From Geodia barretti (Eukaryota), in NCBI GenBank assembly GCA_030341885.1, contig CASHTH010001844.1, forward strand, positions 1 to 61,629: a stretch of DNA of 61,629 nucleotides, read 5' to 3'. Position numbers and translations under genes: made by a program. This document shows, one piece after another, positions 10,497 to 11,801 of the stretch (positions are counted from its first letter, which is position 1; every line of letters begins with the position of its first letter). Under the pieces are notes generated by a model, which was not told the DNA's origin, ran no database searches, and was given only the letters and a program-made list of their open reading frames with translations.

Positions 10497-10645
10497 GTCT
10501 TCAAAAATTTGACGACTGAAATGCTCTCGAAAAACCAGCCCAAAGAAGCATATGAGGTTGCCATGGCAATGCAGTCCCAATTAGAGCTCACCTACACGTC
10601 AGATGCAGCACGCTACTTGGAAGATGTAAAGCAGTTTATAGCAAC
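10497..10645 (+). CDS. exon linking the VWA gene to the 14-3-3-like terminal exon
   Basis: tttacag| acceptor and AC|gtgagt donor, ending in phase 2. Translates VFKNLTTEMLSKNQPKEAYEVAMAMQSQLELTYTSDAARYLEDVKQFIA(T). Confidence 0.5.
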
Positions 10646-10981
10646 GTGAGTGCATTACACAATATATAAAGTATTACTTTAAACTATGTTTTTGAGGGAA
10701 AATTCAAAATTTGCAGACACAAATTTTTGTGTGAGTAAATCTATTCTCTTTTTCACCATTAAGGGTATGTACACAGCAGTATATTTATCAGGCTTGACCG
10801 TCTTTTAATTTTTAACTGTCTTTTTGACCATTATACAAGTATGACCATTAAGTGTACATATGTAGCAGTATACAACAGAGACTTGTTAATTTTGACTCTT
10901 GTTTTCCAACCATTCAGATATGTAGCTACGTAGCAGTAACCTTCAGGTTCATTTTTACTCTCTTTCTCTTCTTTTCGCCAG

Positions 10982-11801
10982 GACCATAGAGCCACAGGCC
11001 AAGCGAGACGACTACCTAAACCTAGCAAAGGAGGCGGAAGCAGCCAAAGACTATTCCGCTGCTCTGAACTACCTCAAACTAGCCGATCGTGGAAAGGTCA
11101 CCGCGTCTTCCGTCACTCTCCCTCTTCTCTCTCGCTGTCTGAGAGGGCTATGTCGCGACCCCGCCCACGACTGGAAGAAGCTTTCTCGTGAGACCACGCC
11201 CGAGGATAGAGAGGGGCTGAGAAAGATGAGAATGGTGGCGGAGGAAATCGAGGACGTGTGTTCGGAGGTCTCGAGTCTAACCAAAAGTATGTCTTCCCGA
11301 TCCACTGAGCTTGGCTTTCTCAAGATTGGTCGTGGACCCAATGAAGTTTCTTTTCTTCGGATGAAGATAAATATCGAATGTCTACGCTACCGCCACGAAC
11401 TCAGCCCAGACGACGAGAAACTGAGGCAACGGGTGGACGCTCTGCAAAAGTCGGCGCTGAGGTATGCACAGGGTCACCTCCCCAATCACCCCGCGAGGCT
11501 AGAAATTATCCTCGATCGGTGCCGATTTCTGAGAGAGACGGAACCGCAGGAAGCGCTTCGACTGGCAAAGACGACGTTCGACGAGGCAGTCTCGAGTCTC
11601 GATTCGCTCGCGGAGGACTCGTACAGAGAGACGACTCTGGCCCTGCAGGAGTTGAGGGACCACGTGACGGTGTGGGGGGAGGAGGAGAGGGAGAAGGAGA
11701 GGGTGAGGGAGGAGGCCAGGAGGAGAGAGGAAGAGAAGGCGAGGGAAAGGGAAAGGAAGGAGGAAGAAAAGAGACAAAGACAAGCGGAAACGAAACGGTA
11801 A
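10982..11801 (+). CDS. terminal exon encoding a divergent 14-3-3-like domain (in frame with the VWA5A-like gene)
   Basis: ttcgccag| acceptor. Its single leading base completes the split Thr codon left by the upstream phase-2 donor, and the exon runs as a continuous ORF to TAA at 11799-11801. The product [21 protein letters not shown]...[19 protein letters not shown]...[63 protein letters not shown] aligns helix by helix to 14-3-3: [86 protein letters not shown]. It ends in a K/E/R-rich tail. Confidence 0.65.

Follow-up and report, generated by a model that had tools for sequence, protein, structure and literature searches.

A 14-3-3 domain encoded within the predicted PARP4 gene of the demosponge Geodia barretti

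The window analysed here is a whole contig of the demosponge Geodia barretti (CASHTH010001844.1, 61,629 nucleotides, forward strand), and the element in question is the exon at 10982-11797, which belongs to a gene visible from 1061 to 21500 on the + strand and is predicted to encode a complete 14-3-3 fold. Upstream of this exon the gene carries the end of a VIT domain and a vWA domain, and its homologues identify it as PARP4 (vault PARP, vault poly-ADP-ribose polymerase) rather than as VWA5A. We hold with good confidence that the exon is an internal exon of G. barretti PARP4, within a known architecture in which VIT and vWA are followed by an appended 14-3-3 domain and, in some proteins, by actin. 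An initial annotation of the same DNA, made from the letters alone, had taken the exon for the terminal one of a VWA5A-like gene and had regarded the arrangement as new.

Identity and visible extent of the host gene

The deposited protein CAI8020734.1, named 'Protein mono-ADP-ribosyltransferase PARP4 [Geodia barretti]' and 1691 residues long, is the product of the window gene and maps exactly onto 26 exons bounded by AG and GT between 1130 and 21500 (+); the gene model behind it rests on an annotation supported by poly(A) RNA sequencing (RNA-seq) (Steffen et al. 2023, PMC10542158). Pfam matches VWA_3, VWA and VIT in the gene product, and across VIT and vWA the identity to metazoan PARP4 proteins is 33-44%. 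Among the 120 homologues listed, those with a source name are either called PARP4 or poly(ADP-ribose) polymerase (4) or are uncharacterised products, and the name VWA5A is carried by none of the 120; the best complete homologues listed, the PARP4 proteins of Saccoglossus and Porites, are 43-44% identical, and both possess BRCT and PARP catalytic domains. The last 148 residues match solely residues 1577-1704 of human PARP4 in a phmmer search against the PDB (9bw6, 9bw7 and 11jf; E=1.7e-9), a segment that constitutes the MVP-interaction domain in vault-cage structures (domain name per PMC10711553). Because the named homologues are PARP4, the C-terminus corresponds to the MVP-interaction domain and the deposited name is PARP4, the host gene is assigned to PARP4 on sequence grounds, and the same observations rule out the VWA5A-like identity initially given to it. 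VWA5A (BCSC-1) has the VIT and vWA tandem in common with the Geodia gene, but the latter ends in an MVP-interaction domain.

The ATG at 1130 is an artificial start of the deposited coding sequence, the 5' portion of the gene being off the contig: a tblastn search found no upstream PARP4 exon in window 1-1060, and the contig begins inside VIT. As far as the splice donor of the 14-3-3 exon, the features are as follows.

1061-1147, + strand: first recognisable exon, end of VIT (VKEKEQAHREYREAISKGHGAYLMDEETP); tblastn with Porites PARP4, 93% identity
1382-1581, 1674-1758, 1997-2128, 2315-2407, 2928-3018, 3386-3459 and 3514-3740, + strand: first seven of the 13 exons within 1382-9915 that encode the VIT end, vWA and the post-vWA region conserved in PARP4; exact mapping of CAI8020734.1
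5881-6076, 6283-6357, 8748-8828, 9106-9186, 9636-9737 and 9799-9915, + strand: last six exons of the same block
10023-10136, + strand: linker exon 1 (EAEEALEECQ...LGPTHPLRFQ), phase 0 at both ends; sequence, translation and deposited model
10497-10645, + strand: linker exon 2, 149 nucleotides, AG acceptor and GTGAGT donor two bases into a codon; sequence and transcript contigs L002 and L009
10982-11797, + strand: 14-3-3 exon, 816 nucleotides; Pfam, PDB chain matches, AlphaFold2 and Foldseek, and transcript contig L009 to 11662
11025-11675, + strand: Pfam 14-3-3 domain, residues 627-843 of the deposited protein
11676-11797, + strand: Glu/Arg/Lys-rich helical tail
11798-11803, + strand: splice donor GTAAAA (CG/GTAAAA at 11797/11798), enclosing an in-frame TAA at 11799-11801; deposited model

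All introns of the 1382-9915 block are bounded by AG and GT, and all 13 of its exons are joined in transcript contig L002.

Transcripts and splicing of the 14-3-3 exon

Two transcript contigs from Joint Genome Institute (JGI) sample 3300047102, L002 (2126 nucleotides) and L009 (2540 nucleotides), are 97-100% identical to the window exons and contain no intron. They run from the exon at 1382 through the vWA and post-vWA exons to 9915, continue across 10023-10136 and 10497-10645, and enter the exon at 10982, of which L002 covers 10982-11248 and L009 covers 10982-11662. One mRNA holds the 14-3-3 exon together with the exons for VIT and vWA; as both contigs join the vWA exons to 10982, a separate downstream gene is excluded. 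The initial annotation had read the exon as an in-frame part of the VIT-vWA gene and had suggested looking for transcripts across the linker exons into 10982; the two contigs span exactly these junctions with consistent splice phases, so that the in-frame reading stands and the separate 14-3-3-like gene offered as its alternative does not.

The sequence also bears out, as annotated, the exon at 10497-10645 with its phase-2 GTGAGT donor, the acceptor AG at 10980-10981, the completion of the codon by the base at 10982 and the 820 open nucleotides that lead to the TAA at 11799-11801. The preceding exon had been placed at 10024-10137, from which the joined frame meets a stop; the interval 10023-10136 is in frame, with AG and GT boundaries, and its splice sites are kept in the related sponge locus L001.

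The 14-3-3 exon is almost certainly internal rather than terminal, and the gene runs on for about 10 kb, because the stop sits in the donor, the phase-2 splice is conserved and the actin exons downstream are without a start codon of their own. The TAA behind the earlier description of a terminal exon lies inside the GTAAAA donor, which is identical in L001 and from which the deposited model joins 11797 to 12011. Colinearity with the window extends to three related sponge loci. L001, at about 83% nucleotide identity, follows it up to the end of the locus, just past the first actin exon, and L006 and L007 do so through the post-vWA region, linker, 14-3-3, actin and MVP-interaction domain. The 14-3-3 domain occupies the same position in each of them, which is what a check of relatives for the tail, proposed at the outset, was to establish. 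A phase-2 donor and a phase-2 acceptor ahead of the polyproline-actin exon are found in three of three related loci, and in L006 (AG/GTTACC ... tag/G) and L007 (AA/GTATGT ... tag/A) the donor stands at the equivalent place and yields a stop-free junction. No in-frame ATG is seen in the exon at 12011-12134 before the Met of DTGMATVK, a conserved actin position.

The window and L001 share 90% identity over the intron at 11798-12010, almost without insertions and deletions; the introns at 9916-10022, 10137-10496 and 10646-10981 are full of large insertions and deletions relative to L001, and the 61-nucleotide intron at 9738-9798 is 92% conserved. The conservation of 11798-12010 could reflect a regulatory function or an alternative 3' end. 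Beyond the donor, the gene continues with the following features.

12011-12134, + strand: polyproline, then the first actin strand (AEVPRPPPPPPVSQLEP...ALVIDTGMATVK), with a phase-2 acceptor; deposited model, with the equivalents in L006 and L007 in the same phase
12398-12466, + strand: actin-fragment exon encoding 23 residues, phase 0 at both ends; open reading frame (ORF) and splice sites, absent from the deposited model
13214-13556, + strand: actin D-loop region, then non-actin sequence; 92% identical in L007, deposited start 13238
16357-17361, + strand: large proline-rich low-complexity exon with FH1-like polyproline runs; deposited model
19749-20038, + strand: R-SNARE (synaptobrevin) motif without a transmembrane segment; Pfam PF00957
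20405-20579, 20810-20915 and 21335-21500, + strand: three terminal exons with the MVP-interaction domain and the stop; phmmer against the PDB

The order visible from 1061 to 21500 is the end of VIT, vWA, the post-vWA region, a degenerate half-14-3-3-like linker and 14-3-3 with a charged helix, succeeded by polyproline, an actin N-terminal fragment, a proline-rich region, the R-SNARE motif and the MVP-interaction domain. The deposited CAI8020734.1 appears to skip one actin exon (12398-12466) and to misplace one acceptor (13238 for 13214). With the exon at 12398-12466 included, Pfam Actin matches over profile positions 5-66 of 410 (E=1.3e-14), and the corrected joins restore one continuous actin segment over these positions; L006, L007 and L008 all keep the sequences at 12398-12466 and 13214-13237, which adjoin each other without a break in P0121, a PARP4-like protein of Dysidea. 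The model exon at 13954-14076 is without a counterpart in L006 or L007 and looks doubtful.

The actin fragment (window 12011-13556, L006 11000-11620, L007 6615-7585) is far too short for an actin fold and is also found in the PARP4-like proteins of Dysidea and Saccostrea. Its D-loop region is identical to that of real actin, and the fragment, which contains a 30-residue stretch that we take to be the canonical actin D-loop region, is under very strong constraint (dN 0.087 against L006). The R-SNARE motif is matched by PF00957 (E=5.4e-13) at residues 1453-1508, over profile positions 3-58 of 89. A synaptobrevin occurs at the matching position as an ORF ahead of the MVP-interaction domain in L007, not in L006, and also in a Saccostrea PARP4-like protein, while the MVP-interaction exons themselves are conserved in both L006 and L007. 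Vaults were reported in 2026 to associate with membranes in situ (PMC13100048), which may bear on this motif.

Fold, ligand pocket and divergence of the 14-3-3 domain

The exon at 10982-11797 is predicted, from profile and structure-model comparisons alike, to encode a genuine and complete 14-3-3 fold. Pfam PF00244 matches its translation with E=6.3e-19 and 68.9 bits (gathering cut-off 33.2) over profile positions 2-222 of 223, and matches the deposited protein with 66.3 bits at residues 627-843; the solved chains of 14-3-3 sigma and zeta are matched with E of about 3e-19, the identity to zeta being 30%. The AlphaFold2 model has nine helices, with a mean predicted local distance difference test score (pLDDT) of 87.9 and a predicted template modelling score (pTM) of 0.73, and Foldseek ranks 14-3-3 zeta and sigma as its best matches in the PDB (target-normalised TM-score 0.78-0.83, root-mean-square deviation about 3.2 A). 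The complete nine-helix fold proposed initially, together with the profile search suggested for it, is upheld by these results. In the alignment to human zeta, helices G-I are strongly conserved, with HPxRL, AKTxFDEA, SYK and LRD recognisable. Like canonical 14-3-3 proteins (human zeta and sigma), the Geodia domain has the nine-helix fold and the conserved helices G-I; it differs from them in being one part of a protein that exceeds 1700 residues, in evolving fast, in its changed tetrad, groove and dimer residues and in a deletion in helix D.

The same alignment bears out the earlier observation that ligand-groove positions are altered. In zeta numbering, the phosphate-binding tetrad K49/R56/R127/Y128 reads R/A/R/Y in the window, R/A/C/Y in L001, D/H/R/F in L006 and R/G/Y/Y in L007, so that Arg56 is absent from four of four orthologues and Lys49, Arg127 and Tyr128 are each lost in some. 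Within the groove, the window copy keeps L172 and W228 and has the substitutions N173D, V176C, I217A, L220E and N224H, at positions that vary among the orthologues. At the dimer interface it has L12E, R18D, D21A and S58D, keeps A16 and E89, and lacks the Y82/K85 region through an 8-residue deletion in helix D. Canonical phosphopeptide binding by the domain is unlikely, as judged from the alignment, because the tetrad and groove are changed in the light of established 14-3-3 structure-function knowledge, and the changes in pocket and contacts probably speak against a canonical 14-3-3 dimer. The suggestion of a built-in phosphopeptide-binding or dimerisation module is accordingly doubtful, the phosphate tetrad and several dimer positions not being conserved. 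A 14-3-3-type helical domain as a module of a larger protein is also present in SMG5, SMG6 and SMG7, as in Geodia PARP4; the 14-3-3-like domain of SMG7 keeps its phosphoserine pocket, unlike the degenerate Geodia pocket, and the kinship is limited to the fold.

The domain appears, from rates of substitution, to be maintained by purifying selection under a constraint much weaker than that on its neighbours. Against L001, the ratio of nonsynonymous to synonymous divergence (dN/dS) is 0.22 in the 14-3-3 domain (dS 0.22, dN 0.05), and neighbouring exons give similar values. In the comparison with L006, the entire gene is saturated at synonymous sites, and dN is distributed as follows.

VIT: dN 0.07
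vWA: dN 0.10
Actin fragment: dN 0.09 (0.087)
MVP-interaction domain: dN 0.26
Linker: dN 0.40
14-3-3 domain: dN 0.49

The dN of the 14-3-3 domain is about 5-7 times that of VIT and vWA. Its identity to the window copy is 42% in L006 and 35% in L007, whereas the VIT and vWA of these sponges are 75-94% identical; PF00244 scores in the orthologues are 69-105 bits.

Architecture, alternatives and possible role

Sequence derived from 14-3-3 may extend upstream of the complete domain. In an hhalign comparison, the 88 residues of the linker (10023-10645) fall on helices F-H of the canonical 14-3-3 profile with a probability of 86% and E=5e-6, LGPTHPLRF being paired with LxPTHPIRL, and the linker looks like a degenerate remnant of these helices. 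At the linker position of an unrelated contig, L008, an unmistakable half 14-3-3 is present (PF00244, 34.8 bits, profile positions 130-191), followed by polyproline and the actin fragment, and the PARP4 proteins of Saccoglossus and Porites have related sequence at this position. Because the linker aligns to 14-3-3 and L008 has a half 14-3-3 in its place, 14-3-3-derived sequence looks ancestral to the post-vWA part of PARP4, with the Geodia clade additionally having a complete domain. A plain TPR linker, indicated by a weak TPR_12 match in Porites, was considered and rejected, since hhalign favours a 14-3-3 helix F-H remnant and L008 has the half 14-3-3.

Other PARP4-like proteins have different modules at or near the 14-3-3 position: ubiquitin in Dysidea and Batillaria, synaptobrevin beside actin in Saccostrea, and none in protein P0282 of another species, whose contigs L010-L012 link vWA, the post-vWA region and the linker straight to the actin fragment. 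These contigs are apparently derived from complementary DNA, their spliced status being read from an uninterrupted ORF and not from comparison with a genome, and they count among the evidence that the gene runs on into actin. In a full-library phmmer search, P0132, P0133 and P0137 were recovered as sponge orthologues, the other higher-scoring hits that were checked were tandem canonical 14-3-3 proteins, and no long PARP4-like protein from another phylum was found among the best 150.

The combination of VIT and vWA with 14-3-3 is already known, and the sponge gene adds a member to it. Perina et al. 2014 (PMC4245714, section 3.1.2) described PARP4-like proteins in which a 14-3-3 domain is appended to VIT and vWA, from four amoebae, Capsaspora, Branchiostoma floridae and Strongylocentrotus purpuratus, and noted a further domain at the C-terminus, e.g., actin, in some PARP4-like proteins and ubiquitin-related domains in some; the architecture that the initial annotation offered as new had thus been reported. 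A full-text literature search found no further paper linking PARP4 to a 14-3-3 domain. The proteins of this set share with the Geodia gene the order VIT, vWA and 14-3-3, with actin more C-terminal in some; L006, L007 and L008 repeat this order. Sponges are absent from the paper's list for this architecture, and the Geodia gene differs in having a half-14-3-3 remnant followed by a complete 14-3-3 in a single 816-nucleotide exon, as well as an R-SNARE motif and a recognisable MVP-interaction domain. Human PARP4, with the layout BRCT, WGR, catalytic domain, VIT, vWA, disordered region and MVP-interaction domain, resembles the Geodia gene, whose catalytic half is off the contig, in VIT, vWA, C-terminal homology and a long, fast-evolving tether encoded by large exons; it differs in that its tether is disordered and without 14-3-3, actin or SNARE modules (PMC4038475, PMC10711553).

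Several observations weigh against an internal exon of PARP4 encoding a non-canonical 14-3-3 module. The PARP catalytic region (BRCT, WGR and catalytic domains) is not visible, the contig starting inside VIT. L002 and L009, the only transcript contigs that reach into the 14-3-3 exon, both have a frame-shifting 37-nucleotide tandem duplication of window 11176-11212 (L002 2052-2090), giving ...EDREEAFS and a stop; the 14-3-3 frame after the duplication is open for 170 further codons, to the end of the contig (L009), and the duplication may be allelic, or an artefact of reverse transcription or of assembly. A 24-mer across the 11797/12011 junction had no exact match in the JGI metagenome contigs, and a scan for related loci with the C-terminal half of the domain gave three canonical 14-3-3 loci (34-35%) and no junction transcript. 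Arg127 and Tyr128 are kept in the window copy, which is compatible with weak or atypical phospho-binding, and the function proposed for the domain would derive solely from the alignment and the predicted model. The failure of both searches to recover a G. barretti transcript over the junction favours the idea that the exon is truly the last coding exon in at least one isoform, ending at the TAA at 11799-11801 through retention of intron 11798-12010 or through upstream polyadenylation, as do the in-frame TAA directly at the donor in G. barretti and L001 and the unusual conservation (90%) of 11798-12010 between them. We regard such an isoform as improbable: the stop is not conserved, L006 and L007 reading on into unconserved sequence while the phase-2 pair is conserved, the downstream actin exons are strongly constrained and lack a start codon, the MVP-interaction domain stands at the far end on the same strand, and the RNA-seq-supported deposited model splices onward. 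A 14-3-3-like gene of its own, made up of exons 10497-11801 and lying directly behind the VIT-vWA gene, has next to no likelihood in view of the intron-free joins of L002 and L009, the consistent phases and an order repeated in L001, L006 and L007; in its favour are only proximity and a single unusually large exon, as a captured retrocopy might show.

The internal position in PARP4 being preferred, the alternatives that remain concern what the domain does. A working classical dimeric reader of phosphoserine or phosphothreonine, which would make PARP4 phospho-dependent or dimeric, could be argued from the full-length Pfam match, the conserved fold and helices G-I, and the retention in the window copy of Arg127 and Tyr128 with a conservative Arg for Lys49, but is unlikely given that Arg56 is gone from all four orthologues and every other tetrad residue is lost at least once, that I217, L220, N173 and N224 are changed along with L12E, R18D, D21A, S58D and the helix D deletion, and that the domain, at 42% and 35% identity across sponges whose VIT and vWA stand at 75-94%, changes far more quickly than canonical 14-3-3 proteins do. 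Still less probable is a decaying relic without a function of its own, since the ORF is intact in four loci despite synonymous saturation, dN/dS is 0.22 against L001 and the orthologues score 69-105 bits in Pfam, although the degenerate ligand pocket, a dN 5-7 times that of VIT and vWA and the lack of a full domain in P0282 fit such decay. The tether of invertebrate PARP4 may also be pictured as a cassette slot in which whole or fragmentary copies of strongly conserved host hub proteins (14-3-3, ubiquitin, actin D-loop and VAMP R-SNARE) act as baits or decoys for pathogen effectors. The module found there does differ by lineage: the Geodia clade has a full 14-3-3, Dysidea and Batillaria have ubiquitin, L008 has half a 14-3-3, Saccostrea has synaptobrevin beside actin, and P0282 is empty. 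The actin D-loop fragment is shared by sponges and oysters. The 14-3-3 domain evolves fast and the actin fragment is almost unchanged from real actin. Daugherty et al. 2014 (PMC4038475) found the region of vertebrate PARP4 between vWA and the MVP-binding part to be disordered, encoded by the largest exon and positively selected, and proposed this tether as a host-pathogen interface. The cassette slot is nevertheless entirely inferential and has little probability in our estimation, because a signal of positive selection is absent here (dN/dS 0.2-0.3), no pathogen partner is known, and an adaptor role towards cytoskeleton and membranes, the reading of Perina et al. (PMC4245714), explains the same modules. 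If it were true, effectors caught by such baits would be passed to the ADP-ribosyltransferase or into the vault, so that recognition would lead to ADP-ribosylation or sequestration, and the tether modules would correspond, in invertebrates, to the disordered exon that is under positive selection in vertebrate PARP4.

The remainder of the contig holds further features. Antisense inside the PARP4 intron at 6358-8747 lies a 314-residue cysteine-rich ORF (6844-7788, - strand), intact in the same intron of L001 (85% amino acid identity) and L006 (73%); a search of Pfam found no family match for it, and it is probably a real nested gene. Tandem-repeat arrays occupy PARP4 introns at 4137-5628 (units of about 61 nucleotides) and 14100-16300 (about 2 kb, with long spurious ORFs), and in L001 the equivalent of window 12124-12157, comprising the exon end and donor, is tandemly repeated about six times at 9710-9951. 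Downstream of PARP4 stand two ORFs in tail-to-tail orientation, one of 871 residues (26547-29162, + strand) and one of 833 residues (29761-32262, - strand), which are apparently free of introns and are putative phosphofructokinase (PFK) genes by sequence and synteny; L006 has two ORFs with Pfam PFK matches in the same arrangement downstream of its PARP4 locus. Glycine-rich proteins are encoded at 33604-35616 and 39628-40152 (- strand).

For the 14-3-3 domain of Geodia PARP4, the alignment and the predicted model point most readily to a monomeric, phosphorylation-independent helical module for binding or scaffolding. As in human PARP4, the MVP-interaction domain would attach the protein to the shell of the vault, and the 14-3-3 domain, placed in the long variable tether between vWA and this vault anchor, would recruit partners or substrates to PARP4 or to the vault. 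A pocket-degenerate full 14-3-3 domain, a near-identical actin D-loop fragment, polyproline and an R-SNARE motif in the tether of a sponge vault PARP may be signs of ties to the cytoskeleton, to membranes or to conflict between host and pathogen.

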